This document shows, in pieces, positions 14,574 through 30,891 of a DNA stretch of 32,000 nt. Under the pieces are notes generated by a model. That model did no database searches and was not told the origin of the DNA. It saw only the letters and a list, made by a program, of their open reading frames with translations. The stretch comes from Rhizobium helianthi. Lineage in GTDB: Bacteria > Pseudomonadota > Alphaproteobacteria > Rhizobiales > Rhizobiaceae. The stretch covers positions 88,804 through 120,803 of the forward strand of contig NZ_JBHUEQ010000003.1 of NCBI RefSeq assembly GCF_042680945.1, in the 5' to 3' direction. The position numbers and the translations under genes were made by a program. How positions within the stretch are numbered: the first letter of the stretch is position 1; each line of letters starts with the position of its first letter.

Positions 14574-14591
14574 AAACTGGCTCCCCGGGCC
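14574..14591. repeat. attL core: 18-bp direct repeat AAACTGGCTCCCCGGGCC (duplicate of the tRNA-Asn 3' end)
   Basis: It is identical to 31623-31640, and the flanks diverge immediately on both sides. Confidence 0.85.
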
Positions 14592-14736
14592 TGAGATTTT
14601 GTAGCAACCAAGATAACCATTGCATCAACAGTGGAGTCTAAAACGCTATATTTTTCAACGGGTAGCTTGTCCATTGCGTCCATTCGGCCTATCTACATAC
14701 CGCCACCCAATAGTGGGAAAAAAGCGGGGAAGGTCA

Positions 14737-15915
14737 ATGGGGAGCCATACTCGGAACGTGCTGACTGTGAAGGGAATCGCGGCGAGCAAATCTAAGAAAT
14801 TGCGCGACGGTGGCGGGCTCTGGCTCGTTCAAAAAGGCGATGGTCGGTATTGGATCTTCTCATACACGCTCGCCGGTCGTCGTCGCGAGATGGGTATCGG
14901 CCCGCTTCATTCGGTCGGCCTTGCTGAGGCGCGCGAACGGGCCGCCAAGGCAAGGGAGATGGTCAAGGAAGGTAAAGACCCGATCCGTGACAAACGCCAG
15001 GCACTCGCCGAGCAGCCGAAGCCAAAGACATTCGGCGAGTACGCTGACAGCTTCATTGACGCAGCGGTGAAGGCTGGCCGCTGGCGAGGCGCGAAGACCG
15101 AAGCGCGATGGCGCAATCTGCTGGAAAATCACGCGAAGCCGATCCGTCACCGACCGATAGCGGACATAGACATTGACGACGTGAAGACTGCGCTGAAGCC
15201 GCTTTGGTGCATCAAGCAGGAAAGCGCCGAAAAGCTAAGGGAGTGCATCGAGCGGGTGCTGGATGCGGCCAAGGTGGAGAAGCTGCGGACGGGCGACAAT
15301 CCGGCTGCATGGAAAGGCAACCTTGAGCATGTGCTGCACAAGCCGGCCAAGGTGGAGGGCGAGGGGCACCATGCAGCTATGCCGCACGACCAGATCAGTG
15401 ACTTCATGAAGTCACTGGCCAGTGTCCAAGGCGTGTCGGCTCGCTGCCTTGAATTCGCGATACTCACAGCGGCCCGCGGCGGCGAGGCGAGGGGAGCGGT
15501 TTGGGCAGAATTCGACATGAAGGCGAAAGTCTGGACCGTTCCAGCCGCAAGGATGAAGACAGGCAAGACGCATCGCGTGCCGCTATCCAAACCCGCGATT
15601 GCGCTCTTGGAGCGCATGAAGGCGCAGTCTGTTAGCGAGTACGTTTTCCCGAGCGTCCGCAGCGGCAAGCCGTTGTCGGATATGTCTCTGGCGAAGGCGC
15701 TCACGACGGCGGGCGGGGGCGCCTATACTCCGCACGGGTTCCGCTCAACGTTCCGCGATTGGGCAACAGACGTCGCGCACGCGCCGCGAGAGATTGCAGA
15801 GGCGGCCTTGTCTCATGCCGTTGGTGATGCGGTGGAAAGAAGCTATGCGCGCTCAGATGCGTTGCAACGGCGCCACACTTTGATGGAGGAGTGGGGTAGA
15901 TACTGTTTCGGCTAA
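14737..15915 (+). CDS. int: tyrosine recombinase/integrase, P4-like with an N-terminal DUF4102-type arm-binding domain
   Basis: The start is set at ATG 14737 (MGSHTRNVLTVKGIAA..LRDGGGLWLVQKGDGRYWIFSY). The C-terminal catalytic region includes HRVPLS, HGFRSTFRDW and ERSY (catalytic Tyr). Confidence 0.92.
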   Translation: MGSHTRNVLTVKGIAASKSKKLRDGGGLWLVQKGDGRYWIFSYTLAGRRREMGIGPLHSVGLAEARERAAKAREMVKEGKDPIRDKRQALAEQPKPKTFGEYADSFIDAAVKAGRWRGAKTEARWRNLLENHAKPIRHRPIADIDIDDVKTALKPLWCIKQESAEKLRECIERVLDAAKVEKLRTGDNPAAWKGNLEHVLHKPAKVEGEGHHAAMPHDQISDFMKSLASVQGVSARCLEFAILTAARGGEARGAVWAEFDMKAKVWTVPAARMKTGKTHRVPLSKPAIALLERMKAQSVSEYVFPSVRSGKPLSDMSLAKALTTAGGGAYTPHGFRSTFRDWATDVAHAPREIAEAALSHAVGDAVERSYARSDALQRRHTLMEEWGRYCFG

Positions 15916-16040
15916 GGCAACCAAAGCGGCCGCGTTGACAACGGGCAATGTAACCGCCATCAATAACTACACCGGCGGAATAATTCACCGTCTGGATAGC
16001 ATCGGTTACAAACCCCTGTCAACACCTATTGGAGGAAAAA

Positions 16041-16253
16041 ATGAAATCAGACAACGATAATACCCCCGCACTCATTTCGCTAAACGACGCATGCCGCATG
16101 ACGTCCATGTCTCGCACCATGCTGAACCGTTACCGCGCGGAAGGGCGGTTCCCTGTTGCCGTTGATCTCGGCGATCGTCGCATTGCCTTCGTGCGGGAGG
16201 AAGTTACCGCCTGGATTGCCGCGAAGATTTCGGCGCGGCAGGTGGCGGCATGA
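16041..16253 (+). CDS. alpA: AlpA-family HTH protein (putative excisionase/regulator)
   Basis: GGAGG lies 5 nt upstream of ATG 16041. The segment LISLNDACRMTSMSRTMLNRYRAEGRFPVAVDLGDRRIAFVREEVTAWI fits the AlpA / phage Xis HTH_17 pattern. Confidence 0.8.
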   Translation: MKSDNDNTPALISLNDACRMTSMSRTMLNRYRAEGRFPVAVDLGDRRIAFVREEVTAWIAAKISARQVAA

Positions 16254-16570
16254 GCTCGGAGACGGATCAACCTAACGACATTCTGGATCTGGTAGACGCT
16301 GCAACTAGAGCGTTCCGAGGAGCAGCTTCGGTTGAGGATACAGCAGTCGGATGGGACTACTTCTCCCGCGTTGAAAGCTATGTTGAGATGACATGGCCGA
16401 ATGACAAGGATCTTTTGGATGTTCTTTATCAAGCGAAAAGGTACTTAAGTCAGTTCACGCTGGATCTGCGAAACGGAGTGCCGTCTCCGTTCAACGGATG
16501 GGCTTCCACCATGGGTCGCCTTAGGGCCATGGTGGATACTCCATATGGCCTGGACGGCTACCCCAAATAA
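16250..16570 (+). CDS. hypothetical protein
   Basis: 106-aa ORF whose start overlaps the alpA stop (ATGA). The composition is acidic and plausible for a protein. No family was recognised. Confidence 0.5.
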   Translation: MSSETDQPNDILDLVDAATRAFRGAASVEDTAVGWDYFSRVESYVEMTWPNDKDLLDVLYQAKRYLSQFTLDLRNGVPSPFNGWASTMGRLRAMVDTPYGLDGYPK

Positions 16571-16594
16571 CCCCACCACCAAAAGGAAACCCAG

Positions 16595-16855
16595 ATGAAA
16601 ATTCTCTCAATCCGCCCTTGTGACGAGGGCGGAAACACACTCGCATTGTTTGATGCGCAGTTGTCCGACGATATCCGAATGTTCGGGCTGAAGCTGGTGA
16701 AGACACCGCGCGGCCCGCGTGTTTATGCGCCATCCACGCGCGCCAGCAACGTTGCCACCTTTGCACCAGATTTTGCCGCAGCCCTAGCTCGCGCCGCTCA
16801 GGCAGCACTTTACGGAGAAGCCGAACACAATGTCAGCACTTGCAAAGCAGCCTGA
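16595..16855 (+). CDS. hypothetical protein
   Basis: 86-aa ORF with AAGGAAA upstream. Its 3' end overlaps the start of the next gene by 26 nt, so it sits in an operon context. Confidence 0.45.
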   Translation: MKILSIRPCDEGGNTLALFDAQLSDDIRMFGLKLVKTPRGPRVYAPSTRASNVATFAPDFAAALARAAQAALYGEAEHNVSTCKAA

Positions 16856-18089
16856 TGCTTCACCATTGCAGCCGGGTGACGAAGTTACCCATGAGACATT
16901 CGGCCCCGCCACAGTCGAGCGCGCCGGTTCATTCACCTCTCTAATTGTGACGGTCGGCGGCACAAAGGAAATTGTTGCCAACAGCGGGCTGAAGGTCGTC
17001 AAACTGAAGGCGGCAAACGACAACACGCGGGCCGCCGACACATTTCCCTTGGTTAATCCGGCGCAATGGCATGGCCAGCCAATCCCGCCGCGGCAGTGGT
17101 TTATCGAGGATCTTATCCCGATGGGCCAGGTCACCTTACTTTCGGGGGACGGTGGTGTCGGCAAGTCGCTGCTGGCGCTTCAACTTGCAGCAGCCGCGGC
17201 CATGTCGCTGGACACCTTAAATCTTGAACCGTGGGCAGGTCGCGCCTTGTATGTCGGCGCTGAAGACGATCAGGACGAGTTCCTGCGGCGCCTGGCCGAC
17301 ATCACCAAGGCGCACGGCAAGGATCTGGACCATTTGCTTTTGCTGCGGCTGGTTCCGCTTGCCGAGCGGGACGCGCTGCTCTCCGTTCCCAACAAAAGTG
17401 GCACGATGGAGCCGACTCCTCTTTGGCGCGGCATCGCTTCCTTTGCGGCGGAATTCACGCCGCGTCTTATCGTGTTGGATACGAGCGCGGATTTGTTTGG
17501 CGGCGACGAGATCAAGCGCGCGCAGGTCCGCCAATTCATCGCAATGCTTCGCAAGCTTGCCATTGAGCTGCAGTGCGCCATCGTTCTGCTGTCACACCCA
17601 TCGGTACAGGGAATGCAGACCGGCACCGGCATTTCCGGGTCCACCGGCTGGTCCAATAGCGTTCGTTCGCGGCTGTATCTGACGCGGGACAAGGACGACG
17701 CCGACTTGCGAATTCTGAAGGTTATGAAATCGAACTATGGCGAAGCCGGCAAGGAGCTTCGACTACGCTGGAAGGATGGTGCTTTTGTCCTAGACGATGG
17801 CAAGCCGAACGTTGGATCAATGCTATTGGCTGCAAAGGCCGACCGCGTTTTTATTGAAACGCTCGCAAAGCTATTTCAGCAAGGCCAGAAGCTGAGCCCT
17901 AGCCCATCAGCAACTTATGCACCGAAGCTCATCGCCGCGCACCCCGATGGCGCTGGAATATCGAAAAAGGAACTGGTGGCGGCACAGCAGCGACTACTTG
18001 ACGCGAGACGAATCCGAATCGTCGAGGACGGTCCAGCATCGCGCCGCACGCGGCATCTTGTGGTGTCTGAAAGCGAGATTTCAGACTGA
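16830..18089 (+). CDS. RepA-like / AAA_25 (RecA-DnaB superfamily) replication ATPase with an N-terminal Tudor-like (UvrD C-terminal-like) segment
   Basis: It has Walker A LLSGDGGVGKS, Walker B RLIVLDTSADLF, and the SHPS motif typical of RepA/AAA_25 proteins. The N-terminal GDEVTHETFGPATVE resembles the GxxVxHxxFGxGxV motif of PcrA/UvrD C-terminal Tudor domains. Confidence 0.75.
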   Translation: MSALAKQPDASPLQPGDEVTHETFGPATVERAGSFTSLIVTVGGTKEIVANSGLKVVKLKAANDNTRAADTFPLVNPAQWHGQPIPPRQWFIEDLIPMGQVTLLSGDGGVGKSLLALQLAAAAAMSLDTLNLEPWAGRALYVGAEDDQDEFLRRLADITKAHGKDLDHLLLLRLVPLAERDALLSVPNKSGTMEPTPLWRGIASFAAEFTPRLIVLDTSADLFGGDEIKRAQVRQFIAMLRKLAIELQCAIVLLSHPSVQGMQTGTGISGSTGWSNSVRSRLYLTRDKDDADLRILKVMKSNYGEAGKELRLRWKDGAFVLDDGKPNVGSMLLAAKADRVFIETLAKLFQQGQKLSPSPSATYAPKLIAAHPDGAGISKKELVAAQQRLLDARRIRIVEDGPASRRTRHLVVSESEISD

Positions 18090-18129
18090 CCTTCAGACTA
18101 CCTTCAGACCCCTTCAGACCCCTTCAGAC
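18080..18129 (+). repeat. iteron-like direct repeats: five TTCAGAC cores (four as CCTTCAGAC); candidate origin
   Basis: The cores start at 18080, 18092, 18103, 18113 and 18123, giving spacings of 12, 11, 10 and 10 bp. The array straddles the stop codon of the RepA-like gene. Confidence 0.7.
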
Positions 18130-18164
18130 TGCCCTGTCCACACACCCCCTTGTACCCCCTGTAG

Positions 18165-18202
18165 GGTGTGAAGGGGTTTCACACCCGCCCCTGACGGGCG
18201 GG
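18165..18202 (+). terminator. two overlapping GC-rich hairpins after the replication gene (possible terminator or origin structure)
   Basis: The first hairpin is GGTGTGAA (18165-18172) / TTCACACC (18178-18185). The second is CCCGCCC (18184-18190) / GGGCGGG (18196-18202). No T-run follows either. Confidence 0.35.
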
Positions 18203-18289
18203 CTTACCCTTCACGCCCATAGCCGACCCGCCGCCAAGAGCGGGCGGCCCGCAACAACCAACCGGAGGAGATTACCAGGATGAAAACAA

Positions 18290-18499
18290 ATGTTTGCAGT
18301 GACACCATATATCGCCGAGCGCCCCATGTGGGTGGAGCAACCTAACGGCAAGGTCAAACAAGAATGGGCGCCCTGCCGTGTCATCGGCATCACCAAGGAC
18401 GATGACGGCGACCCCGCGTTCGTCGTGGAATTCGCTTCAAGCGGCTCGGTCTTCCTGGCCGTTGAAAGTGAAATCAGACGGCGGGGTGATGTTCTGTGA
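18290..18499 (+). CDS. hypothetical small protein (69 aa), uncertain
   Basis: The ORF has plausible codon usage. However, the nearest SD (GGAGGAG, 18264-18270) better serves an out-of-frame ATG at 18279 that opens only a 21-codon ORF. Confidence 0.35.
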   Translation: MFAVTPYIAERPMWVEQPNGKVKQEWAPCRVIGITKDDDGDPAFVVEFASSGSVFLAVESEIRRRGDVL

Positions 18500-18607
18500 T
18501 TGCGGCCCGACAATCTCGCGCGAGCAATCAAGAATTATGTGGCGTGACTGTCCCTTTCTTCATTTCCGCAGGGTGTAACAGTGAAGGTGTCGCGCCGCGA
18601 CCTTGCC

Positions 18608-18630
18608 GCCTGAGTACGGACTGGCACACC
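18608..18630 (+). repeat. 23-bp perfect direct repeat, copy 1 (GCCTGAGTACGGACTGGCACACC)
   Basis: It is identical to 18818-18840, exactly 210 bp downstream. Confidence 0.9.
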
Positions 18631-18817
18631 CCGCGGCGCGGTAGGTGTGGGAAGCAATTGCTTTCAGAAATCCCACCCCCATTGCTACCTGAGTGTACAC
18701 TCAAACCGCGACGCCACGGGCAACATAAAGCGAAGCCAGTTGGCGTGACGCATGCGCCGAATGTCGCCAGAGTGACTAGGGGCAGGAAGCAAACGCTTCC
18801 AGAAATCCCCCATAGCA

Positions 18818-18840
18818 GCCTGAGTACGGACTGGCACACC
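18818..18840 (+). repeat. 23-bp perfect direct repeat, copy 2
   Basis: It is identical to 18608-18630. Confidence 0.9.
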
Positions 18841-19100
18841 TCCCGACTGACTAGGGGTGAGACCACCGGCATCGGTGCGAGTACGTACCCAAACCCTGAA
18901 TTTGCGGGCAGTATTATAGACGCAGCATAGGGTCCGCCACGCGCACTGAAGTCACCAAGGGGTGAGCCGTCTTTTTTCTTTTGCCGCTCCCGGATGTACG
19001 GACGGCAATTAGATCCGCCAGCGCGCTGCGCGCTGCTGGTGTCGATCGAGCCGCAGCGGTGGTTATTCCTTTTCACCGCTGCGGCCACCGTTCCAGATCA

Positions 19101-19137
19101 CCGCCCAGCCTCTTTTGGGGTTGGCGGCTTTATTTTT
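19101..19137 (+). terminator. putative rho-independent terminator immediately upstream of the morphogenesis operon
   Basis: Stem CCGCC (19101-19105) / GGCGG (19123-19127) with additional imperfect pairing, followed by CTTTATTTTT. A 10-bp hairpin precedes it, GCCGCAGCGG (19050-19059) / CCGCTGCGGC (19076-19085). Confidence 0.45.
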
Positions 19138-19174
19138 GCCCAATCGAAAAACTAACCGTTGATAGGAGGCCTCA

Positions 19175-19594
19175 ATGGCCTGGACTTCTCGCGACTTCAG
19201 TGTCGCAGAGGCCGCGCAATGCGTTGGCCTCCACCGCACGCACCTTGACGTCATCATCTCTCGCGCCAACCCGCTCGCCACGCTCTTTTCCGAAAAGCGG
19301 AAAGGGCGGCGCTGGTTTTCGGTGCGCGATATCACAGTTCTCCGGATTGCCTACGAACTGGAACGCGCCGGACGTGCCTGGAATACGGCGATTGCGCAGG
19401 CTTTCGAACACACCGGCACGCAGCCGCCCCCGGACGCGCTTCTGGTGGTTCCTGTCGCCAGTGTGTCGGCAACGTCAGGACGCGTTCTAACGGGCCTCCC
19501 TGACCCGCTGCCGTCGTCGTCTTTCATCACCGTTCCCATAGGGCGCATTGCCGCCGAAATAATGGAGGCAATCGATGCCCTGGCCATTCAGTAA
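19175..19594 (+). CDS. MerR-like HTH protein (possible late-gene regulator)
   Basis: GGAGG lies upstream of ATG 19175. The segments FSVAEAAQCVGLHRTHLDVIIS and WFSVRDITVLRIAYELERAG fit a MerR-type HTH-wing pattern. The 3' end overlaps the portal start by 20 nt. Confidence 0.55.
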   Translation: MAWTSRDFSVAEAAQCVGLHRTHLDVIISRANPLATLFSEKRKGRRWFSVRDITVLRIAYELERAGRAWNTAIAQAFEHTGTQPPPDALLVVPVASVSATSGRVLTGLPDPLPSSSFITVPIGRIAAEIMEAIDALAIQ

Positions 19595-20765
19595 GCCGGC
19601 GCCTGCCGTAGTCATCGAAGAGAAATCCCTTGGCGATCCAACCGCCGAACTGCTCGAATTGTTCGGCGCCATCCCCGCCGGCACGACGATCAGCAACGCG
19701 GAAGCCTTGTCAGTGCCAGCCGTGTCCGCTGCCGTTCGCATCATCTCGGAAGCCGCGGCAAGCCTGGACGTCAAGTTGAAGCGGAAAGTCGGCGGTTCCG
19801 AAACGGACGTTGAAGACCATCCGGCGATGAAGCTTCTAACCGGGCAAGCGAACGGCTGGACGTCCGGATTCGAGATCATCCGCGATTTGGTGGCCGGCGC
19901 GCTCACCAAGGATCAAGGCGGAGTTGCCTACGTGACGAAAGTCAACGGCGAACCGCGCGAAATCATCCAGTATCGCGACGGCGTTTTCACCGTTGATTAC
20001 GACGACGTAACAGGCGAGCCGAAATACAGGATAAGCGGCCAGCCGGTTGCTGCGGGCTACGTGCTGCATGTTCGCGGGCCGTTCACGAAGTGTCCCCTTA
20101 CGATGGCCCGCAGCGCGATTGCCACGGCAAGCGCAATGGAGGCGTACGCCAATGGCCTGTGGTCGAATGGTGCGCGTCCGGGCGGGGTTATCGAAAGCCC
20201 TAAGGCCATTGGTGCAAAGTCGGCCCGCGAAATCTTGGCCGGTTGGAAAGCCGCTTTTGGTGGTTCCGCCAACGCAGGAAAGACCGGTCTGCTTTGGGAC
20301 GGAATGACCTACAAGCAAATGGCGCTGACGTCGGTTGACGGCGAGTTCACGGCCAGCCGCACGTTCCAGATTTTGGAAATTGCCCGCGCCTTCCGTGTGC
20401 CGCCAGGCATGCTTTATGAGCTCTCTCGCAATGTCTGGGGTAATTCCGAGCAACAGGGCAAAGAGTTCATTTCATACACACTAATCCCATGGCTGCGGAT
20501 CCTTGAGGGCGCATTTAACCGCGCGCTGCTCACCGATGCCGAGCGTGTCGAATATCGGTTCATGTTCGATATCGATGACACCAGCCAAGCAGATCTAACC
20601 GCTCGCGCCACTTCGATTTCCACGCTTATCACGGCACGCGTGATGAACCCCAACGAAGCGCGCGAATGGCTTGGCATGCCACCTCGCGACGGTGGCGACG
20701 TTTTCGCAAATCCCGCCATCGACACCGCGCCAGCCAATGACAATCAACCAAAGGAGGCGGCGTGA
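19575..20765 (+). CDS. phage portal protein, HK97 family
   Basis: 396 aa with typical HK97-type portal blocks (..PAVSAAVRIISE.., GGVIE.P, LLWDGMTYKQM, LEIARAFRVPP.ML, PWL..LE). Confidence 0.9.
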   Translation: MPWPFSKPAPAVVIEEKSLGDPTAELLELFGAIPAGTTISNAEALSVPAVSAAVRIISEAAASLDVKLKRKVGGSETDVEDHPAMKLLTGQANGWTSGFEIIRDLVAGALTKDQGGVAYVTKVNGEPREIIQYRDGVFTVDYDDVTGEPKYRISGQPVAAGYVLHVRGPFTKCPLTMARSAIATASAMEAYANGLWSNGARPGGVIESPKAIGAKSAREILAGWKAAFGGSANAGKTGLLWDGMTYKQMALTSVDGEFTASRTFQILEIARAFRVPPGMLYELSRNVWGNSEQQGKEFISYTLIPWLRILEGAFNRALLTDAERVEYRFMFDIDDTSQADLTARATSISTLITARVMNPNEAREWLGMPPRDGGDVFANPAIDTAPANDNQPKEAA

Positions 20766-22294
20766 CCGTCGAATTTCTAGAGTTCAAGGCCGCCTTCACG
20801 GCGGATGACACCGGCCTCGTCGAAGGCAAGGCCTGGGACTTTTCCAGCGCTGACCGCGTTGGCGACATCATTGAGCCTGCAGCCTTCGCCAGTGCCATCG
20901 GCAAGTCTCTCCCCATGCTCTTCGCTCATGACCAGGCGCAGGTCGTCGGCACGTGGGAAAGCGTCGCCGTTGAGGCGGACGGCCTGAAGGTCAAAGGCAG
21001 GCTGCTCGTCGACGACGTCGCACGGGCCAAGGAAGTTCGTGCGCTTCTGCGTGCGAAGTCGGTCACGGGGCTGTCTGTCGGCTTCATGACGAAAAAGGCG
21101 GCGCCTCGCAAAGGTGGCGGCCGCACCATCACCGACCTGGACCTCATGGAAGTGTCCCTCGTCGCAATCCCCGCGCACCCAGGCGCGCTAATCTCTTCCG
21201 TGAAGGAATTCCCCATGACCACCGAAACCAAGACCATTGAAGATCTGGCCGTCGAGCTCAAGGCTGCAAACGACAACATCCTGGCCGTTACCAAGCGGCT
21301 CGAAACCGCCGAAACCGCATTGGCACGACCTAACATTCTCCGCGCTGCGAACGACAATGAACCCACTCCGGAACGCAAGGCCTTCACCGGCTTCCTGCGT
21401 CATGGCGTCGAACGTATGGACGCAACCGAGGTCAAGGCGCTTGTCGTGTCCGACGACACCCGCGGCGGCTATTTGGCGCCTGCAGAGTTTCAGACGGAAA
21501 TCCTGAAGAACCTTGTTGAATACAGCCCGGTTCGCATGGCAGCCCGCGTTGGTTCTACCGCTGCCTCGTCGGTCATCCTGCCGAAGCGCACCGGCACGCC
21601 GACGGCAAGCTGGGTCGGAGAAGTAGAAACCCGCAGCGAGACCAACTCGACATATGGTCAGGTTGAGATTCCCGTTCACGAAATGGCCGCCTATGTCGAC
21701 GTGTCCGTCCAACTTCTTGAGGACGCGGCCATCAACGTCGAAGCCGAAGTCGCCAGTGACCTCGCAGAAGAGTTCGGCCGTCTTGAAGGTGTCGCACTGG
21801 TCAACGGCAACGGCTTCAAAAAGCCCACAGGCATCATGTCCGCGGCCGGCATCACGGAGGTTATCTCTGGTTCCGGCACCGCTATCACTGCGGATAGCCT
21901 CATCAGCCTCATGTATGATCTCCCGGCATTCTATCGCAACAACGGCGCTTGGATGATGAATGGCACAACTCTTGCCGCCATCATGAAACTGAAGGACTCC
22001 ACGAACCAGTATTTGTGGCAACCAAGCTATCAGGCAGGCCAGCCGTCGCTTCTTCTCGGGCGTCCCATTGTAGAAGCAATCGACATGCCGGACATTGCCG
22101 CCGACGCGTTCCCGATCGTTTTTGGCGACTTCAACCGTGCTTACCGAATTTATGACCGTGTCGCGATGTCGATGCTGCGTGATCCATACACGCAGGCCAC
22201 CACCGGGAAGGTTCGGTTCCATGCACGGCGCCGCGTCGGTGCCGACGTCGTGATGGCTGAAGCGCTGCGCAAGCTGAAGGTTTCGGCATCCTAA
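20762..22294 (+). CDS. HK97-family prohead protease (S78) fused in frame to an HK97-family major capsid protein
   Basis: The GTG start overlaps the portal stop (GTGA). Residues 1-150 carry the protease motifs LFAHD (His) and GLSVGF (Ser). The region from residue 152 (MTTETKTIEDL...) has a coiled delta-like segment and then the HK97 MCP pattern. An internal GAAGGA plus ATG at 21215 could also start the capsid protein separately. Confidence 0.88.
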   Translation: MTVEFLEFKAAFTADDTGLVEGKAWDFSSADRVGDIIEPAAFASAIGKSLPMLFAHDQAQVVGTWESVAVEADGLKVKGRLLVDDVARAKEVRALLRAKSVTGLSVGFMTKKAAPRKGGGRTITDLDLMEVSLVAIPAHPGALISSVKEFPMTTETKTIEDLAVELKAANDNILAVTKRLETAETALARPNILRAANDNEPTPERKAFTGFLRHGVERMDATEVKALVVSDDTRGGYLAPAEFQTEILKNLVEYSPVRMAARVGSTAASSVILPKRTGTPTASWVGEVETRSETNSTYGQVEIPVHEMAAYVDVSVQLLEDAAINVEAEVASDLAEEFGRLEGVALVNGNGFKKPTGIMSAAGITEVISGSGTAITADSLISLMYDLPAFYRNNGAWMMNGTTLAAIMKLKDSTNQYLWQPSYQAGQPSLLLGRPIVEAIDMPDIAADAFPIVFGDFNRAYRIYDRVAMSMLRDPYTQATTGKVRFHARRRVGADVVMAEALRKLKVSAS

Positions 22295-22341
22295 TCAGCC
22301 ATCGGGCGGCCTAGCGCTGCCCTTCCTCCGTTTGGAAAGGA

Positions 22342-22734
22342 ATGACCATGCGCGATCTTTCGCATAATCTAGGCGTCGTTCAGGCGCTCGCCCCCCAGGT
22401 GCTTTCGGCTACCGACACCAGCGCGGCCATCGACCTAATCGGTTTCGATTCCGCTGCCGTCGTCATCAGTACGGGCGCCATCGTTTCCTCTGGCAATTTC
22501 ACTGCGAAGCTCCAGGAGTCGGACACGACGACTTCCGGCGATTTCAGCGACGTTGCTGCTGCCGACCTGATTGGCACGCTGCCCACCGCGCTGGCTGCGT
22601 CGTCTGTCTACAAGCAAGGATACGTCGGCAACCGCCGTTACATCCGCCTGGTGACCACGAAGAATTCCGGCACGTCCATTGCGGTCGGTGCCGTGGTCGT
22701 TAAGGGCCATGCTGCTTCGCGGCCTGTAGCATAA
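22342..22734 (+). CDS. hypothetical head-module protein
   Basis: 130-aa ORF directly after the capsid gene with GGAAAGGA upstream. An alternative ATG lies at 22348. No family was recognised. Confidence 0.55.
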   Translation: MTMRDLSHNLGVVQALAPQVLSATDTSAAIDLIGFDSAAVVISTGAIVSSGNFTAKLQESDTTTSGDFSDVAAADLIGTLPTALAASSVYKQGYVGNRRYIRLVTTKNSGTSIAVGAVVVKGHAASRPVA

Positions 22735-22916
22735 CCTATCGGCGGGGGTATCCGAGGTTGCGCCGCGCGACCTAAAGAACGTGCGCGCCCGCCATCGACA
22801 TCATCGCGCGCGTTTACGCGGAAGTGGGGAGTTGTGACCCCTGCGCACGAGGCGGCTGCTTCGCCTCGCTGGCCGTCAGGGTGATCCTGGCGGCCTTGCA
22901 CCTAGAGGATCAATCA

Positions 22917-23270
22917 ATGGTCAACGTCATCTGTCCGTGCGGCTTTGCGGTACCGAAAGGCACGCGCTGCGACTGCAGCCAACGACGCGCCACAGCACGA
23001 CAGAAGGCCGCTGATGCGGCCCGTGGTAGCGCGGCGGCTAGAGGATACACCGGCAAGTGGGCTCAAGAGTCCAAGGCGTGGCTTGCTGCGCTTGGAAGCC
23101 CGCTGTGTGCCTGCGGATGCGGACAGGCTGCGAATATGGTGGACCACATCATAGCGCCGAAAGGTGACAAGCGATTGTTCTGGTCACGCTCCAATTGGCA
23201 GCCTTATCGCGATACATGCAACCGTCGGAAGGCGATCAAGTCTGAAGGTGCGTTTGGGCGAAAGCCGTGA
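22917..23270 (+). CDS. HNH endonuclease (phage packaging-associated type)
   Basis: The start is set at ATG 22917 (MVNVICPCG...), preceded by GAGGA. It has Cys-rich zinc motifs (CPCG, CDC, CACGCG) and the HNH core VDHIIP..G......NWQ..C..CN..K. Confidence 0.8.
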   Translation: MVNVICPCGFAVPKGTRCDCSQRRATARQKAADAARGSAAARGYTGKWAQESKAWLAALGSPLCACGCGQAANMVDHIIAPKGDKRLFWSRSNWQPYRDTCNRRKAIKSEGAFGRKP

Positions 23271-23414
23271 CGCTGGTTTGCATCCAAGGCCAAACAGGCC
23301 CAGGCGGGTCGACCAACGCCACAACCGGGGGGTCGGTCGTCAATTTCCCGCAAACCACCTGGGACCAGCGTGGGCACGTCGCTCTCGATTCACTCTAAAT
23401 GGGAATTTCAACCT

Positions 23415-23705
23415 ATGGCAATCGTCTCTTTGGCTGACGTAAAGGAGCATCTGCGTCTGCTCCATGACGACGACGACGCACTAATTGAGGACCAGATTCC
23501 GGCTGCCGTCGCTCACCTTGAGACGCTGCTGGGATATGTCATCGAAGAAGAATTTACCACCGTTCCCGACGATCTGAAACAGGCCGTTCGCGCGCTGGTT
23601 GCTCACTGGTACGAAAACCGGGAAGCAACTGGCGAAAACCTATTCGAAGCGCCGTTCGGAGTTTGGGAAATCGTGCGCGAACGGCGCAGCTACGCATGGG
23701 AGTAG
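23415..23705 (+). CDS. gp6-like head-tail connector protein
   Basis: The start is set at ATG 23415. MAIVSLADVKEHLRLLHDDDDALIEDQIPAAVAHLE...AVRALVAHWYENRE is the characteristic Phage_gp6 (DNA-packaging/head-tail connector) pattern. Confidence 0.8.
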   Translation: MAIVSLADVKEHLRLLHDDDDALIEDQIPAAVAHLETLLGYVIEEEFTTVPDDLKQAVRALVAHWYENREATGENLFEAPFGVWEIVRERRSYAWE

Positions 23706-23709
23706 GCCG

Positions 23710-24117
23710 ATGACACGAGGACGTAAGCCCGATTTCGTCACGATAGACGGCGCGCTCACAAAGGCGCCAGCCGCTCCCTCGTGGCTGCCTACGCATGCCA
23801 AATCCGAATGGCGACGCATCATGCCGCGCCTCGTGCAGGGAGGCCGGATCGCGAACCATGAGCTCTCTACGGTCGAAGACTATTGCCTCTGCGTGGCCCG
23901 CAAGCGCGAGGCTGAAGCGGTCCTGCAGGCCGAGGGGCTGACCTACCTGTCGCCCACGGGCGAGCTCAAGCGCCGGCCAGAAACAACCATTATCAAAGAA
24001 GCAATCGAGGCCAGCCGCCGGCTCGCCAGCGAGCTCGGACTTACGCCTGCAGCGCGGGCGCGAAATAAGGGAGGCGCCGCAATCGATGACGAAGACGACG
24101 CCTTATCTTCCATCTAG
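23710..24117 (+). CDS. terS: phage terminase small subunit, P27 family
   Basis: The start is set at ATG 23710, with GGGAG 7 nt upstream. MTRGRKP......AP.WL...A..EW.R..P.L...G......D...L..YC is the typical P27-family TerS pattern. Confidence 0.85.
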   Translation: MTRGRKPDFVTIDGALTKAPAAPSWLPTHAKSEWRRIMPRLVQGGRIANHELSTVEDYCLCVARKREAEAVLQAEGLTYLSPTGELKRRPETTIIKEAIEASRRLASELGLTPAARARNKGGAAIDDEDDALSSI

Positions 24118-25708
24118 TCACCCGTCCTGGCTCTTTGACGATTCACCAATTCCAGATCCGCACGGCAAAGGGCAGCGCGCCGTTGATTTTCTTCGCGCGC
24201 TGAAGCACCCCAAGAGCACCGCGCCTGGTCGAGCATTTCAGCTAGATCCGTGGGTCGAAAGGCTTGTGCGAAAGGTCTATGGCGACACAAAGCCGGACGG
24301 CACCCGCCGCATCAAGACGGTTTTCGCCCTCATTCCTCGCGGCAATCGCAAGACGACACTTGGCGCTGCTTTGTGCCTGCTGGCGCTAGGGCCGGAGCGC
24401 GTTCCGGGGTCGCAGGTGGTTAGCGCAGCCGTTGACCGCGATCAGGCGCGTATCGCGCTTGAAGAGATGAAGGGCGTGATCGCGGCTCATCCAAGGCTCG
24501 AAGCTGCGTTCCATGTGCAGGACACCAAGAACCGGATAACGCACCGAAAGTCTTCGGCATTTTACCGCGCCATGTCAGCGGATGCCGCAACCGCTCACGG
24601 ACGCACGCCAGTTTTCGCACTGGTGGACGAATTGCACGCCTGGAAAAAACGCGACCTTTGGGACGCTATCAAGACAGGCCTTGTGAAGACGCCGGGCAGC
24701 TTGCTGGTAGTTACGACCACGGCAGGCATAGGCCACGAGAACATCGCGTATGAGACGTACAAATATGCGAAGGCAGTAGCGACCGGTCAGATTGAAGACG
24801 ATGCCTTCTTGCCCATTATATTCGAGGCGGATCCGAAGGAAGACTGGCGCGACGAGGCCGTGTGGCATCGCGTGAATCCTGGCCTATCCTGTAACCCGCC
24901 CTACCCGGACATTGTCGGCTTGCGCCAGATGGTGCGGGAAGCCGAACACAGGCCAGCCGATCGCGAAATGATCCGTCAACTGCACTTGAACGTGTGGCTG
25001 GACGGCGCTGCTAACCCGGAGTGGTCCCTCGACGTTTGGGACGAGAACGCAGGCGAGCTTGATCTGTCCGAATTGGAGGGGCGGCCCGCTTGGGTGGGTG
25101 TCGACTTGGCAAAGAGAATTGACCTCTGCGCAGTCGCCATTGCCATCCCCATGGAGGACGGACGGACGGCGTTGCACGTTCAATCGTTCTGTCCGGCTGG
25201 CACAATTCGCAAACGCACTGACGGCGTTCCTTATCCGCTATGGCGCGACCAAGGCTACCTCACGGAATGCCCTGGAGACGCCATCGACCTCGAATTGGTG
25301 GAAAACTACATCCGCGGCCTCTGTGAGCGGTTCCAAGTCGAAGAAATCGCTTTTGACCGGTGGCACGCTCAAGACGTGATGAAGTCGCTTGAGGCGGATG
25401 GACTGCCGGTGGCGGAGTTTCCGCAGAACATCGCCACTTTCGCCCGCCCTGTTATTGACTTCGAAGCGGCCATGTTTGACCGAAAGCTTGTTCATGGCGG
25501 AAATCCGCTGCTGCGTTGGGCTGTAGGCAATGTCGTGCTTTACACCGACGGCAGCGGAAACCGGCGCCCGCTGAAAGAGAAATCAATCGACAAGATCGAC
25601 CCCGCAGTTGCCGCCATCATCGCCAACGGACGCGCCGCGCAAGGCGTTTCAGGCCGCTCAAGCTACGACGATGCGGATTTGTCCGATTTGTCGTTGTTTG
25701 CGGTTTAA
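24086..25708 (+). CDS. terL: phage terminase large subunit
   Basis: 540 aa. It has a Walker A-like PRGNRKTT, a Walker B VFALVDELHAW, and a C-terminal nuclease domain. The start overlaps terS by 32 nt. Confidence 0.92.
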   Translation: MTKTTPYLPSSHPSWLFDDSPIPDPHGKGQRAVDFLRALKHPKSTAPGRAFQLDPWVERLVRKVYGDTKPDGTRRIKTVFALIPRGNRKTTLGAALCLLALGPERVPGSQVVSAAVDRDQARIALEEMKGVIAAHPRLEAAFHVQDTKNRITHRKSSAFYRAMSADAATAHGRTPVFALVDELHAWKKRDLWDAIKTGLVKTPGSLLVVTTTAGIGHENIAYETYKYAKAVATGQIEDDAFLPIIFEADPKEDWRDEAVWHRVNPGLSCNPPYPDIVGLRQMVREAEHRPADREMIRQLHLNVWLDGAANPEWSLDVWDENAGELDLSELEGRPAWVGVDLAKRIDLCAVAIAIPMEDGRTALHVQSFCPAGTIRKRTDGVPYPLWRDQGYLTECPGDAIDLELVENYIRGLCERFQVEEIAFDRWHAQDVMKSLEADGLPVAEFPQNIATFARPVIDFEAAMFDRKLVHGGNPLLRWAVGNVVLYTDGSGNRRPLKEKSIDKIDPAVAAIIANGRAAQGVSGRSSYDDADLSDLSLFAV

Positions 25709-25714
25709 GGGAAT

Positions 25715-25740
25715 GCCACGCCCATAGCTCAGGGCGTGGC
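25715..25740. terminator. hairpin between convergent terL and lipoprotein genes
   Basis: A 9-bp stem GCCACGCCC (25715-25723) / GGGCGTGGC (25732-25740). There is no T-run, and the right arm overlaps the lipoprotein 3' end. Confidence 0.35.
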
Positions 25741-26127
25741 AGGCGGAGCACGCTTGAAAGCTATGCCCGTTGCGATAACAGCCGACCAGCAATTCTTAAC
25801 TATTGCGCCCGGGTCCGGCACGACTTGCACGGAATGCACGGTGTCAAAGCCTTTTGCCGCTGCGTCCTGCTTCATCAATGCGGTAGCGTTTTCTGGGCTT
25901 GGGTCTGGATCCCAAAGCTTGTTCTTGCATGAATGGCCGGACACACGAGCGGTAGCGGCGCCGAGTGGCGGGCCAGTGTCAACGATAGCAACGGCCACTG
26001 TATCGCGCACGTCCTTCTTGGGCTCAACCCAAGTGCGCGTCAGACTTACATCAGAGTTTTGCGCAGTCGTGCCGCATCCGGCAAGGGCAAGCGCAGCCAC
26101 GAATGGCACCAGCAACTTCGACTTCAT
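25729..26127 (-). CDS. lipoprotein on the opposite strand inside the structural region (moron), RcsF-like pattern
   Basis: It has a lipobox (MKSKLLVPFVAALALAGC). The segment VSGHSCKNK..DPDPS...A..LMK..AA.KG...V........PG....C....I..G.AF aligns by eye with the E. coli RcsF C-terminal domain (VSGDSCQAS..DSPPS...). Confidence 0.65.
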   Translation of the reverse strand: MKSKLLVPFVAALALAGCGTTAQNSDVSLTRTWVEPKKDVRDTVAVAIVDTGPPLGAATARVSGHSCKNKLWDPDPSPENATALMKQDAAAKGFDTVHSVQVVPDPGAIVKNCWSAVIATGIAFKRAPPATP

Positions 26128-26277
26128 CGATCATCCCCCACACGCAACTCAACTTCCGATGGCGTGCGGGCGAAGTCAATAGGCCGAGACCACAGCCCGC
26201 CACTGAGCGGGCTTTTTCACACCAACCACACACGAGACCAACCAAACCGCCGGTCGCACCGGCTGGAGGGAAGAACC

Positions 26278-26490
26278 ATGTCAAATTCCACTGCATATGT
26301 GCTCAGCGTGTTTGCTGGAAACCTCACTGATGCGCTCGTCAAATCGGGTGCGCTAACGCCCGCGGCAGCTCGCGAAGTTTTTGCCGAAGTTGTCAACCGC
26401 CGAGATGCTGTGGTGGATGAAGAAGCGGCGAATCTAACTAAGTATTTTTCTTGCGGCTCAACTGAGTTTTGGCCGGAGGAGGCGCGCTAA
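26278..26490 (+). CDS. hypothetical small protein translationally coupled to the tailspike gene
   Basis: GGAGGG lies upstream of ATG 26278. The protein is 70 aa, and its stop overlaps the next start (TAATG). Confidence 0.5.
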
Positions 26491-29162
26491 TGGCACTGCT
26501 TTCCTACCAGTCACAGGATATCTTTGCGCCTGCCAATGAAAACGGACAGCTGCGCTCGCCGTCTTTGCAGGAAGTGCAGGTTTGGGGCACGGAAATTGAG
26601 GCGCTTGTTGACTCCATTGCGACCTCAGCGGCAATCTTTGACACGCGCGCAAACCTTTACTCGTCGCTTGCCTATGCGGCCAACACGTTGGCGTGGGTGG
26701 TGAATGACGCTACGGCGGCATACAACGGCATCTATCGCAAGTCGGGCGCTTCCGGCTCTGGTTCATGGACGCGCGTTGCTGATCTGCCTTACAGCTTGAT
26801 TGTGGCGAGCAATTCTGGCGCCGGTACGGCAAACGCCATCGTAGCCACCACGGCTATTCCAGTCTCGGAATCCGCTCTTGTGCTGCTGAATGTTGCGGCA
26901 AACAACACGGCAAGTCCGGTGACAGTAGCGTTCAACGGTGGCTCCGCCCTGACCGTGAAGGCCAACAGCGGCAACGACATCGTACCAGGCGGCTTGGTCT
27001 CCGGCATGTTGTTGCTTGGTCGTGTGTCTGGTTCTACATTCAGGCTTGTTAGCGATCAGGCTAGCTCTGCGATCCAAGCCGCCGCCGAAGCGGCTGCAAA
27101 TCAAGCCGCGGCGGAGGCTGACCGTGCAGAAGCTGCGGCGACGGTTGCGTCTGGCGCGATGACCACCGTGCTCGATCCACAGTTCGCCACGCTTGCGGCT
27201 GCCTCTGCGTTCTCTCCTGCTGTGGCCCCGGACTACATACGCACGGCTGGCTATTCCGCTGCTGGAGATGGTGGCGGCGCTCTTTACAAGAAGGTTGCAT
27301 CCGGGCCAAGCCACGCCGGAAAGTTCTCCATCACACTAAGCGGTGGCGGGACAGCGTGGTATGAGTTGGCTAACGGTCAACCGATCTATGCGGAGATGTT
27401 CGGTGCTGTGGGTCACCAGACGGATGCTGCGGCTCTTGCAGATGACGGGACGGTTACCACGCAGGCGATCATCAATGGGCGAGCCTTCCTTCGTGGTAGG
27501 TCAACCGCCCTGAGTACGGATGGTATCAGCGGCAAAGCGATCACCGCCTATGCCTCCGGTGTTCTCAATCTCGGAAGAGGAATTTTCTGCGTTAAGCCAG
27601 ATATGCTCGCTACGGATCAAGATATTGGCTTCATCATCCGAGGACAGGGCAATTCTGGTCGCACCAACTATATGCGTGGGCTGACCACCCTGCTTATTCG
27701 GGGAGCTTCTTCTGGATATGGTCTACGCTGGTATGGCAACGGCGGGCGAAGCGGCGGACTTGAAGATTTAGACCTCTGCTACGAAAGCGCATCGTTCACA
27801 GGTGACATGCTTGACATCATGGGTGGCGTTGGCACGTCCCCGCGGCGCGTAAGTTTTGACAGTTTCGGCAAGACGGGCGGGACAGCGCTATTTACGGCGC
27901 GCTCCAACGTGTCAATCGCGTACGAAGAGTTCTTCCACCCGAAAGATTGCACCTTCAGTGGTGCCAATATCAGCGTCTACTCCCCTTCTACTAACGGGGA
28001 GAAAGTCGTATCTAGACTGACTGGTTCCATCAGCGGAAATACCTTGACTGTGACAGCCCTTAACGAGGGCAATCTTGACGTAGGGCAAAGGCTATACGGC
28101 ACAGGTGTTGCTGAGGGAACCGCGATCACCGAACTTGGCACTGGATCTGGAGGGGTTGGCACGTATACCGTGAACATCAGCCAGTCGGTGTCTTCCCGTG
28201 CGATGACGACTGATATCTCTTTCGGCGGAAGTTGCACGGAGATCGACGCAACCAACGTTTTTTACGATTGCGGCGCCAAGTACGTAGAGCATCGAGCCGA
28301 TAAGGCTCGCTATAACTTCCAGTTCAGTGGGGTAATCAATCCGATACGCAAGGCAAGTACGACAGCAATTGATCTGAGAAACGTAAACACTGTAAGCTTA
28401 GTCGGAATTATGATGCACGGTTCTGTCGGGTTCGGTGCGTCGGATCGCTGGATTTATCTGGAAAATTGCACAGGGAGCCTGTGTGATAATCAGTTTGGTC
28501 CTGGGGCGCCGGAAGCTGCTTATGTTCTGAACTGTCAAATGGAAATCAGTAGTAACTTCCTGCACAATGAAGCCCTAGGATTTGTTTTGCTTGGGGGTGT
28601 AATTAACGGCAAGTCAAACCGCTTCAGTGGATCGGGCATTGGTTGGCGTGTTGCACCTGCCGCGAAGTTAACGGGTCAGATTGGTCCCGACGTGTTCGAC
28701 GCAACGATGACGACCTCCTATCTCATTGACCCGCCGAGCAGTCTGGCGCAAATGCGTGTTAACTACGATAAAGACCTCGATCGCAGCACAGGAAAGTTCA
28801 GTATCGCTTCAGGTTCACGCAACGTGCAAATACTTGGCAGTGGCGAGCGTGAGTACACTGATACTACGGGAAATTACTCAACGTTTGATACTGGCAAAAC
28901 GCTGATTATGAACGCGTCTGGGGCCATGAATTATACTGTCCCCCCACCATTTCACAACTGTGAACTTATGATCTACAAGCCGGTTGGTTTCAGTCTCACA
29001 CTCAACACCAGTTCCGCAAACAGGTTCAGTATCGGGTCGGGCGGAACCAAAACGCAGTTAACGAGTGCCGCTACTGATATCGGTGCATTCGCTAAGCTCA
29101 GGGGATTAGGAACTTCTGACTGGATTGTTGAGAGCCTTGTGGGGACTTGGACATCCGCCTGA
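26490..29162 (+). CDS. tail fiber / tailspike-like protein with a pectate-lyase-type beta-helix (putative depolymerase or receptor-binding protein)
   Basis: 890 aa from ATG 26490. After an N-terminal anchor region comes an Ala-rich coiled coil ([24 protein letters not shown]). This is followed by the motif [20 protein letters not shown], typical of Pectate_lyase_3/tailspike domains, and then long beta-helix-like repeats. The 3' third is visibly lower in GC. Confidence 0.78.
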
Positions 29163-29222
29163 TTGGAGTCGTCGGGCGGCGAGGCTTCTTACAGCCAGAG
29201 CCGCCCAAACCGCCTAGATGAG

Positions 29223-30888: not shown

Positions 30889-30891
30889 TTT

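Follow-up and report, generated by a model that had tools for sequence, protein, structure and literature searches.

A long non-coding leader in front of a phage-derived capsid operon is found in several described systems. In lambda, the PR'-qut-6S-tR' segment operates with the Q protein; the gene transfer agent of Bartonella (BaGTA) combines a constitutive promoter with a terminator-containing non-coding leader of 860 nt and with BrrG, an antiterminator of the Q21-like type; the capsid operon of the Caulobacter gene transfer agent (CcGTA) is under the control of GafYZ; and AlpA of Pseudomonas aeruginosa has been described as a processive antiterminator. A terminator-bearing leader ahead of a capsid operon is, in this sense, a known architecture. 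The present analysis concerns a 32,000-nt stretch of Rhizobium helianthi DNA (hereafter, the window), containing a 17.05-kb island which, judged by its genes, looks like an integrated phage satellite of the capsid-forming phage-inducible chromosomal island (PICI) type. The only long non-coding stretch of the island, at 18500-19174, lies between the replication gene rep on its upstream side and the packaging and head genes on its downstream side, and is tentatively taken for the untranslated leader of the capsid/packaging operon, read from the plus strand as part of the gene row which starts with alpA. What is new is the presence, in this leader, of a repeated module derived from a structured phage RNA, which is absent from Rfam 15 and was not found described in the literature searched, together with the pattern of occurrence of the module in satellites devoid of a regulator gene.

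The locus shares with the Q, BrrG, GafYZ and AlpA systems, in addition to the leader itself, an intrinsic terminator just upstream of the first structural gene and a regulator gene located upstream, which belongs to the AlpA family in the island and resembles sigma region 4 in the phages described below; the alphaproteobacterial hosts are a further point of likeness. It differs from them by the repeated, partly covarying RNA-like module, not described there, and because antitermination is here predicted from sequence, no promoter or regulator-binding element having been located. The put RNAs of phage HK022, two stem-loops of about 70 nt in total, are structured leader RNAs acting in cis upstream of terminators, as the RNA of the window would be, and their stem-loops also carry conserved unpaired nucleotides; they need, however, no protein and directly follow the promoter, whereas the modules in the window are repeated, decayed and, in phages, associated with a regulator. 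The P2/P4 pair, where Ogr of P2 activates the late promoters of P4, is comparable in having satellite control elements that maybe respond to a late regulator of the helper (Ogr/Delta) and short leader elements which are repeated, but no homology exists and P4 uses DNA promoters for zinc-finger activators. As to the P4 CI RNA, no equivalent of the pairing of seqB with seqA/seqC, nor any similarity to the P4 immunity RNA, was found in the window.

The phage RNA and its fragment in the window

Related loci, cited below by L numbers, were collected by scanning viral contigs with AAGTCNCCNNGGGNTGAG. The 75 loci obtained were mostly chance matches, and tblastn led to about ten true relatives, belonging to two types: satellites, in which the motif is located 300-480 nt upstream of a gene for a 139-aa protein, and larger phages, in which it is located about 1.5 kb upstream of terL and is the 5' portion of a conserved block of much greater length. 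A second scan, with the 3' block of highest conservation, brought the number of phage loci to 34; a metagenome scan with the box pattern returned 4 loci and a scan of genome contigs with the 139-aa protein returned 2. A covariance model built from six sequences (R1) found the RNA at full length in 34 of 36 loci, the remaining two copies running off contig ends. The RNA defined in this way is about 124 nt long. At least 36 phage contigs of Rhizobiales carry it, among them that of Sinorhizobium phage AP-16-3, with the RNA at positions 60223-60348.

When pairing was evaluated on 34 distinct sequences, 98% of the cells were found to be standard pairs, against 33-47% with partners slid by 1-3 columns, in an alignment which had been fitted to the model. 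Variation is seen at each of the 18 pairs that make up helices P2, P3 and P4, and at 17 of these the changes include compensatory ones; P2 is found, among other forms, as AAGGG/CCCUU, ACGGG/CCCGU, UCUUA/UGAGA, ACUCUU/AAGAGU and CAGUG/CACUG. Structure conservation, which the initial annotation had suggested looking for in homologous regions, is seen as covariation of these three helices in the phage relatives. P2 and P3 form a closing stem and a variable hairpin, with a UGAR internal loop. Several pairs are often G-U, and the RNA is therefore assigned to the late-gene strand. The 3' domain, CCCGCCGYCAUGCUGCA-loop-UGCAGCCGCUGA-loop-GCGGGUAACUA, is nearly invariant over about 50 nt, substitutions and 1-nt indels being confined to the two loops. 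The possibility of a small open reading frame (ORF) within this domain was discarded, as indels in the hairpin loops break the frame in L059, according to our reading of the alignment. The block TGCAGCCGCTG-N4-8-GCGGGTAAC occurs in phage loci only. In type-a sequences, by our reading, GCAUGAC, in the region of the regulator's stop codon, could pair at long range with GUCAUGC; this pairing takes the form GGC/GCC in AP-16-3 and is absent from types b and c.

The gene order around the RNA is fixed, wherever the genes fall within the 36 fetched stretches and also in AP-16-3: a regulator of 230-350 aa, the RNA, 300-1700 nt, HNH, terS and terL. The 5' end of the RNA is set by the regulator's stop codon, and at least nine phages have a tRNA-Met(CAU) that begins no more than 4 nt beyond the RNA (for example L109 3550-3626, L111 8517-8593, L130 7324-7400). 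tRNA-Pro and tRNA-Thr sometimes also follow (L133 1426-1881; L073 7191-7433); in the tRNA-Met copy of L018, as we read the sequence, the acceptor stem ends with a first base C that faces an A, a feature of initiator tRNAs. No Pfam or PHROG family was found for the regulator. The matches of its C-terminal domain to region 4 of extracytoplasmic function (ECF) sigma factors are weak, though consistent, with no Q-like fold, and the phage 16-3 counterpart of the regulator, p107, is annotated as sigma-factor-like. The type of the box which opens the RNA tracks the type of regulator, a being found with AP-16-3-like regulators and b and c with L097-like ones, and in type-c phages a -10-like CTTAAT/CATAAT is located just upstream of the RNA. 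An interpretation of the box as an ECF-type or sigma-70-type promoter was rejected on account of its variable spacings. Phage 16-3 itself (L137, NC_011103) is devoid of the RNA and carries the homing-endonuclease gene p108 (58664-59413) between p107 and HNH; its similarity with AP-16-3 resumes exactly at the RNA 3' end. The cohesive end of 16-3 has been mapped at 60186-60195, downstream of HNH, and the RNA is located upstream of HNH wherever both were located; the RNA is therefore not the cos site. The apparently undescribed phage RNA is a candidate new RNA family.

In the window, a single type-a 5' box has been well preserved: GCAGCATAGGGTCCGCCACGCGCACTGAAGTCACCAAGGGGTGAG, at 18922-18968 on the plus strand, was identified by models R1 and R2 and by comparison with phages and satellites. 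R2, which describes the box and a short hairpin and was built from other satellites only, without the window, matches positions 18936-18994 with 36.1 bits (E 4.4e-8). R1 aligns end to end over 18936-19045 with 23.9 bits: the match of the 5' box is almost perfect, the P2 3' strand and P4 are missing from the best box copy (18936-18968), and a palindrome, CCAGCGCGCTGCGCGCTGCTGG, is aligned to CCCGCCGC...GCGCUGCGGG, in place of the P5/P6 hairpins. The locus is similar to the phage RNA (alignment A4, family-wide model R3; AP-16-3) in the type-a 5' box, CCACGCGCAYTSAAGTCMCCRAGGGKTGAG, placed directly upstream of P2, in the hairpin which follows it, in the position ahead of the late genes and in the GATCG.GC-terminator located downstream. 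It differs from it in the lack of the invariant 3' domain, of the P4 helix and of the adjacent tRNA, and in having several partial tandem copies rather than one complete RNA. Only the degenerate palindrome aligns to the invariant domain, which is absent from every satellite. No regulator gene, even decayed, was detected in the window by tblastn with seven regulator proteins, and only a remnant, GCAGCATAGG, resembles the stop-codon region. Since R3 gives 12.3 bits (E 0.35) on the window and the invariant 3' block is missing, the window holds a fragment of the phage RNA and is not a member of the family.

Within the box copy, the terminator scan detected a short hairpin, UCACC-AAGG-GGUGA, followed by a U-run (18952-18984, plus strand), weakly terminator-like; a T-run follows the box also in L003. 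Other pieces common to the window and the phage leaders are the AAUCCCCAUUGC box, 3' of the hairpins of the repeat array described below, and the GATCG.GC box preceding the terminator. L003, the closest viral relative, has its own repeats in its upstream region and has AAGTCACCAAGGGGTGAG and GAGTACGGACTG in common with the window. The initial annotation, which did not recognize the region as any named RNA family, is borne out by Rfam 15, taken to cover the P4 C4/CI RNA, tmRNA, riboswitches and ribozymes: at gathering thresholds the sole match in the window is a tRNA-Asn; a permissive scan of 18200-19400 (E up to 10) gave noise only, the best being IR_84 with 28 bits against a threshold of 51; and ten related loci matched tRNAs only. 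No match was found by blastn of the region against phage and plasmid collections. A hammerhead-like core (GGUGAG..CUCAAAC) was also considered and dismissed, as the invariant hammerhead nucleotides are absent and no Rfam match exists.

Repeat units and their distribution among satellites

The region was correctly described in the initial annotation as non-coding. The two long ORFs that cross it, of 144 and 186 aa, have a flat GC content by codon position (0.58/0.59/0.57, compared with 0.65/0.45/0.66 in true island genes) and neither has a Pfam match. Overall GC content is 58.1% in the region and 58.3% in the island. Upstream of the box copy, between 18597 and 18900, three repeat units, all on the plus strand, were delimited by the repeat finder, with sequence reading for the third one. 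A 23-nt repeat, GCCTGAGTACGGACTGGCACACC (A), occurs as two exact copies 210 bp apart, at 18608 and 18818, as had been reported; no further copy is present in the 32-kb window at up to 3 mismatches, none of 100 shuffles gave one, and none was found exactly in the scan of viral contigs. A second module (B) is repeated at 18642-18674 and 18777-18809 with 82% identity. Its 3' flank, CCCCCAT(T/A)GC..CCTGAGT, is found at 18676 and again at 18807, and its inner hairpins differ in sequence with pairing kept, in agreement with what had been noted.

Unit 1 (18597-18709) is composed of an A copy (18608-18630), a B hairpin module (18642-18679), where GUGGGA/UCCCAC closes AGCAAUUGCU and is followed by the AAAUCCCACCCCCAUUGC box, and the hairpin GAGUGUACACUC plus CUCAAAC (18691-18706), in correspondence of a partial R2 match (18690-18709). 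The same GAGU-N4-ACUC-AAAC hairpin follows the box also in other satellites. Unit 2 (18713-18840) opens with a weak box-like GCCACGGGCA at 18713, where R1 gives a partial and weak alignment (18713-18778, E 0.43), and continues with TGACTAGGGG (18773-18782), the hairpin GGAAGC/GCUUCC (18785-18800), then the AAAUCCCCCAUAGC box, and the second A copy (18818-18840); its segment GACGCATGCGCCGAA is common to the window and L089. Unit 3 (18842-18897) contains TGACTAGGGGTGAG (18848-18861), the hairpin CACCGG/CGGUG (18864-18877) and GAGTACGTACCCAAACC (18879-18895). It corresponds to the third hairpin module previously placed at 18848, a TGACTAGGGG-type unit, the association of TGACTAGGGG with a hairpin being repeated at 18767 and 18842. 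Downstream of unit 3, the stretch GAGTACGT.C..AAACC.TGAATTTG.GG.CAGTATTATAG is found almost base for base in L070. Three GAGTACGGAC-like cores are located inside the region, and five in the whole window against 1.1 expected.

The B modules at 18642-18679 and 18779-18809 each consist of a closing stem and an inner hairpin, which were compared with P2 and P3 of the phage RNA. The layout of the A-B units is that of the box region, namely GCCUGA...GGGGUGAG plus a hairpin, to be compared with the copies GCCUGGCCGUAUGCCACGCGAAUUCAGGUCGCCAAGGGUUGAG of L003; the units are too diverged to be scored with R2. On the basis of these sequence comparisons the array is read as a set of older, diverged tandem duplicates of the 5' part of the phage RNA. 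The repeats of the A-B-A-B array proposed initially are real, but a more fitting description is that of tandem units, 75-135 nt long, each made of an A-like 5' segment and a B hairpin.

Boxes detected by R2 at E < 1e-5 are present in the window, L003, L013, L035, L052, L070 and L087, all without an upstream regulator gene, and in L097, despite its own regulator gene. They were not detected in L089, which has no regulator, nor in L093, L094, L096, L101, L102, L001 and L002, which carry a regulator-like gene. The box is therefore found in 7 of 8 satellites without regulator and in 1 of 8 with it, the elements not being phylogenetically independent. Multi-copy arrays occur only in elements without regulator, and independent ones are seen in L003, L013, L035 and L070. 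In the more distant satellites L013, L035 and L070 the region, which takes up roughly 700 nt before the homologue of the 139-aa gene, directly follows terL, and the arrays, larger than that of the window, include six to nine modules, formed by a TA..AG-purine-run, a hairpin and CTCAAAC, with an irregular spacing of 13-17 nt. The satellite hairpins are conserved palindromes, TGAGT-N4-ACTCA. The content of this slot is largely different in L096 and L089, which are close relatives. L093 and L097 have regulators 91% identical, and a deletion in L093 (about 3700-3740, compared with 3600-3700 in L097) removes the 5' box; it also fuses the regulator frame to the next module, the new C-terminus being again ...KIAA. 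The modules follow the 139-aa gene and the late operon across satellites with unrelated rep genes, coding for an AAA_25 helicase, a Prim-Pol or other types.

Proximal part of the proposed leader and the surrounding island

The part of the region closest to the late genes has the same order in all satellites: an element starting with GGATGTAC, a hairpin, GTTGATCGAG, a terminator, and TTTTGCCCAATCGAAAATCTAAC followed by a ribosome-binding site. The element, GGATGTAC-N-GGCAA-N-CATCC (with a first spacer also given as N4-5), is present in the window, L096, L089, L003, L097, L093 and L094. In the window it corresponds to an imperfect palindrome, GGATGTACGGACGGCAATTAGATCC, at 18992-19016, found only in satellites having the MerR-like gene described below. 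It is this separately conserved satellite element that includes the GATGTACGGACGGCA at 18994, called degenerate in the initial annotation; it is not a decayed A copy. Since the element co-occurs with the MerR-like gene, and reading of phage leader sequences, equally devoid of the gene, did not reveal it, it is a plausible candidate DNA site for the adjacent MerR-like protein.

The palindrome CCAGCGCGCTGCGCGCTGCTGG, the degenerate counterpart of the P5/P6 hairpins in the R1 alignment, and the conserved GTCGATCGAG box follow (19017-19049, plus strand); GTTGATCGAG is conserved in satellites and a similar box, GATCGTGC, occurs in phages. The palindrome at 19019-19035 had already been reported, as had the hairpin at 19050-19085 (plus strand), which the repeat finder shows to be a perfect 12-bp hairpin with no U-run. 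The terminator scan also recovered the terminator-like hairpin with a T-run previously described 38 nt ahead of the first late gene: the intrinsic terminator at 19101-19137, CCGCCCAGCC...GGUUGGCGG plus a U-run, is the highest-ranked plus-strand site of this type in the island and is separated by 38 nt from the start codon (ATG) at 19175. All satellites examined have a hairpin with a T-run at this position, and phages have one before HNH, with a different stem each time; the GATCG.GC-terminator arrangement also precedes HNH in phages, as it does in satellites. Sequence comparison then identified a conserved spacer, TTTTGCCCAATCGAAAA.CTAAC, with the Shine-Dalgarno sequence AGGAGG (19138-19174, plus strand).

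The first late gene (19175-19594, plus strand) codes for the 139-aa protein, p139. Its AlphaFold2 model (pLDDT 86.5) matches MerR-type winged-helix DNA-binding proteins, the top Foldseek matches being CvkR, RacA, HiNmlR and GlnR. The protein is 100% identical to one of Rhizobium helianthi; its 61 homologues come from Rhizobium, Sinorhizobium, Mesorhizobium and Hoeflea, and a large part of them are on contigs of about 17 kb; in satellites its gene always travels with the upstream region.

The island extends from 14574 to 31643 on the plus strand and is bordered by 21-nt direct repeats (14574-14594 and 31623-31643), which agree at 20 of 21 positions and define its att sites; the right one is formed by the 3' end of a tRNA-Asn gene (31627-31701, minus strand). 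Its plus-strand genes code, in order, for an integrase, an AlpA-family protein and an AAA_25 replication helicase; beyond the non-coding region are found p139, a portal protein, a protease-capsid fusion, an HNH endonuclease, a head-tail connector, TerS, TerL and an 897-aa tail-fibre-like protein. Every gene from alpA through the tail-fibre-like ORF has the same orientation, and the location of the region at the early/late junction, upstream of the capsid and packaging genes, is as first stated. The AlpA-family gene (16029-16253, plus strand; Pfam PF05930 Phage_AlpA, E 5.7e-10; phrog_66), at the head of this row, is a candidate for an element-encoded regulator or antiterminator. No tail tube or tape-measure gene was seen among the island genes, and there is no non-coding gap at the HNH-terS junction. 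With capsid-forming PICIs of the EcCIEDL933 type the island, as judged by its genes, shares int, alpA and rep, the full capsid and packaging set (portal, protease, capsid, connector, HNH, TerS and TerL), the absence of tail genes, a size of about 15-17 kb and the flanking att repeats. It differs from them in the alphaproteobacterial host, in the order of the genes, as portal and capsid precede HNH, terS and terL, and in the extra 897-aa ORF.

Some additional features of these elements were recorded. The 897-aa ORF (26469-29162) is rich in Gly, Ala and Ser, has no Pfam match and resembles a tail fibre or spike, which is unexpected without other tail genes; for the same reasons, the idea that it may be an RNA polymerase reading TATAG-purine boxes as T7-like promoters was abandoned. 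Prohead protease and major capsid protein form a single 510-aa fusion in the window (20762-22294), L089, L093 and L096, and are encoded by separate genes in L094, L097, L101 and L102. The motif AANDN, resembling the start of the alphaproteobacterial ssrA tag, recurs in 1-3 copies in each of the regulators of L041, L093, L094, L096, L097, L101, L102, L105 and in p107 of 16-3 (L137 476-1168). It is also present inside the Rep helicase and the protease-capsid fusion of the window, where a 41-nt DNA repeat (16994-17034, 21247-21287) encodes K-AANDN in both. A C-terminal -AA is common among the proteins of these elements (regulators, portal, TerL, capsid, Rep), and both features may represent a shared recognition signal for a protease or adaptor; a relationship to tmRNA, suggested by these tails, was rejected, as neither ARAGORN nor Rfam finds any tmRNA. 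Finally, the divergent flank of an XRE/S24-like gene (30890-30960) contains two TGTACA-containing repeats, GGTACCTTGTACAAA and GGTACAGTGTACAAA, and a promoter-like TTGACA-16-TATCGT, and is probably a repressor operator region, unrelated to the leader. The TGTACA link between the two regions, drawn initially, does not hold: the window has 3 occurrences against 2.3 expected, and 37 of 100 shuffles reach 3.

Possible functions of the region

The analysis shows homology, repeat structure, conservation of the terminator, strand and gene context, and from these we infer how the region may work, including termination and antitermination at the leader, the acting factor and the action of the modules as RNA. 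The favoured reading, put forward with clear reserve, is that of a cis-acting leader which halts read-through into the late genes until RNA polymerase has become termination-resistant, and whose repeats are modules recognized by a regulator. The leader would comprise, from 5' to 3', three diverged tandem duplicates and one well-preserved copy of the 5' part of the phage RNA, that is a single-stranded box followed by a closing-stem hairpin; then the satellite-specific palindromic DNA element, probably bound by the MerR-like protein; and finally hairpins, the last of which is the position-conserved intrinsic terminator. Transcripts coming from upstream would stop within the leader, at the latest at 19101-19137, leaving the capsid genes silent. 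The late genes would be turned on once polymerase is made termination-resistant by the AlpA of the island or by the late regulator of a helper phage, the box-plus-hairpin modules being the cis recognition elements for that factor, copied from a helper-type phage leader.

Evidence in favour of this reading includes the homology to a covarying phage RNA, the fixed synteny, the R2 score obtained on the window, the conserved terminator, placed between the leader and the first structural gene, the AlpA-family gene of the island, the boxes in satellites without their own regulator and the sigma-region-4-like regulator of the phages. No sigma-70-type promoter-like site was found in 18100-19300, nor, at the start of the leader, any promoter with an adjacent factor-binding element and pause site; the factor may load at a promoter upstream of alpA. 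The lack of a promoter in the region, the co-oriented genes, the top-ranked terminator at its end and the known examples of gated alphaproteobacterial capsid operons are the reasons for which a leader is favoured. Several observations weigh on the other side. The low score of the window under R3 goes together with the missing 3' domain, so that the action of the full phage RNA may not occur in the window. The A-B copies are too diverged to be scored, the close relatives L096 and L089 have largely different content in this slot and the box was deleted in L093, so that the array may be dispensable or in decay. If the conserved terminator is set aside, the island has no more terminator-like sites than shuffles do (21 against 19 expected), the two strands give similar z-scores for folding energy (-3.1 and -2.4), and the satellite palindrome TGAGT-N4-ACTCA might just as well be bound, as DNA, by a dimeric protein. 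The cis-acting structured RNA gating read-through into late genes, proposed in the initial annotation, fits these findings as regards the homology to part of a covarying RNA at the same junction and the conserved terminator, but the invariant half of that RNA has been lost in the window.

The main rival, possible though clearly less probable, regards the modules as DNA sites, either tandem binding sites or regulator-dependent promoters, at which the sigma-region-4-like regulator of the helper would act on the ACTCAA(A/G) and TA..AG boxes and/or the MerR-like protein of the satellite on the GTAC-N-GGCA cores, so that late transcription would start in the region at the late phase of the helper, as with Ogr of P2 on the late promoters of P4. 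The resemblance of the C-terminal domain of the regulator to ECF sigma region 4, which is the -35-binding domain, speaks for it, as do the correspondence of box type and regulator type in phages, the enrichment of boxes in satellites without their own regulator, the conserved palindromes of the satellite hairpins, the MerR-type fold of p139 with the co-occurring GGATGTAC...CATCC element, and the -10-like CTTAAT/CATAAT of type-c phages. However, P2, P3 and P4 vary in sequence and length with pairing kept and many G-U pairs, a behaviour of RNA rather than of an operator; in our reading of the alignments the spacing between -35-like and -10-like sequences ranges over 13-17 nt and that between GGACC and TCAA over 11-16 nt; no sigma-70-type promoter was detected in the region; and the association between box and regulator may be simple physical linkage. 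It is rather improbable, in turn, that the region is mostly evolutionary debris, a phage-leader fragment captured by recombination at the junction between regulator and late genes, duplicated by slippage and now decaying, with only the proximal 180 nt (p139 site, GATCGAG box and terminator) functional. This would account for the failure of the window copy under the family-wide model, for A-B units beyond the reach of R2, for the mosaic slot among close relatives, for the deletion which removed the box of L093 and kept the rest, and for the fact that across all satellites only the proximal part is conserved. Against it, the two 23-nt copies are still identical though their flanks have diverged, both B hairpins still pair in spite of their different sequences, and independent multi-copy arrays are found in L003, L013, L035 and L070; the concentration of arrays in satellites without regulator argues for selection on copy number.

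Discrete small RNAs acting in trans, as decoys titrating the late regulator of the helper or another RNA-binding factor or as immunity RNAs of the P4 CI type, appear improbable. The units are indeed repeated and end in hairpins, some with U-runs (18952-18984; the L003 copies), and a tRNA-Met lies within 2-4 nt of the full RNA in many phages, an arrangement in which RNase P would release a discrete RNA. In addition, CACACC, at the 3' end of A, is complementary to GGUGUG, at the 5' end of B; this complementarity, however, covers 11 nt at 91%, within the chance range for a G+C-rich repeat, no promoter was detected before the units, no Rfam match of any kind was obtained and no target sites were identified elsewhere in the island. 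Least probable of all is a packaging site (cos or pac, with repeats bound by terminase or p139) or a replication origin with iterons. The region is the only long non-coding stretch of the island, between rep and the packaging and head genes; in the absence of an HNH-terS gap a cos would have to lie somewhere unusual; and the MerR-type fold of p139 is also that of the DNA-binding domain of lambda Nu1. An origin is contradicted by modules which track p139 and the late operon across unrelated rep genes and are located beside terL in L013, L035 and L070, and by the GC content of the region, which is not A+T-rich. As to packaging, the cohesive end of 16-3 is downstream of HNH, the homologous RNA being upstream of it, and hairpins which covary and differ in length are not expected of terminase sites. 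The multi-site protein-binding locus suggested at first is, in conclusion, possible for the GGATGTAC...CATCC element and the MerR-type protein; a cos is not supported for the homologous phage element, and a partition or origin site is contradicted by modules which track the late operon and not the rep type.

A more specific proposal, rather unlikely as it stands, is that the box-plus-hairpin modules are helper-sensing elements, copied and then multiplied by satellites which have lost their own late regulator. The copied part would be the RNA (or DNA) recognized by the sigma-region-4-like regulator of the helper, a step on which our confidence is equally low; and, no less speculatively, that regulator would turn on the capsid/packaging operon of the satellite, and the modules may also titrate it. 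Little is known on the timing of capsid gene expression, or on helper sensing, in alphaproteobacterial phage satellites. The region is an obvious control point for a widespread family of satellites in Rhizobium, Sinorhizobium and Mesorhizobium, and points to a connection, which can be tested, with the region controlling the late genes of 16-3-like temperate phages. If helper sensing is true, the parent element would be a new class of structured phage RNA, characterized by three helices that covary and by an invariant domain of 50 nt, and in many cases fused to a tRNA-Met resembling an initiator. If the region is a plain terminator-bearing leader, it would still extend to rhizobial satellites the theme of antitermination of capsid operons known from BaGTA and CcGTA.

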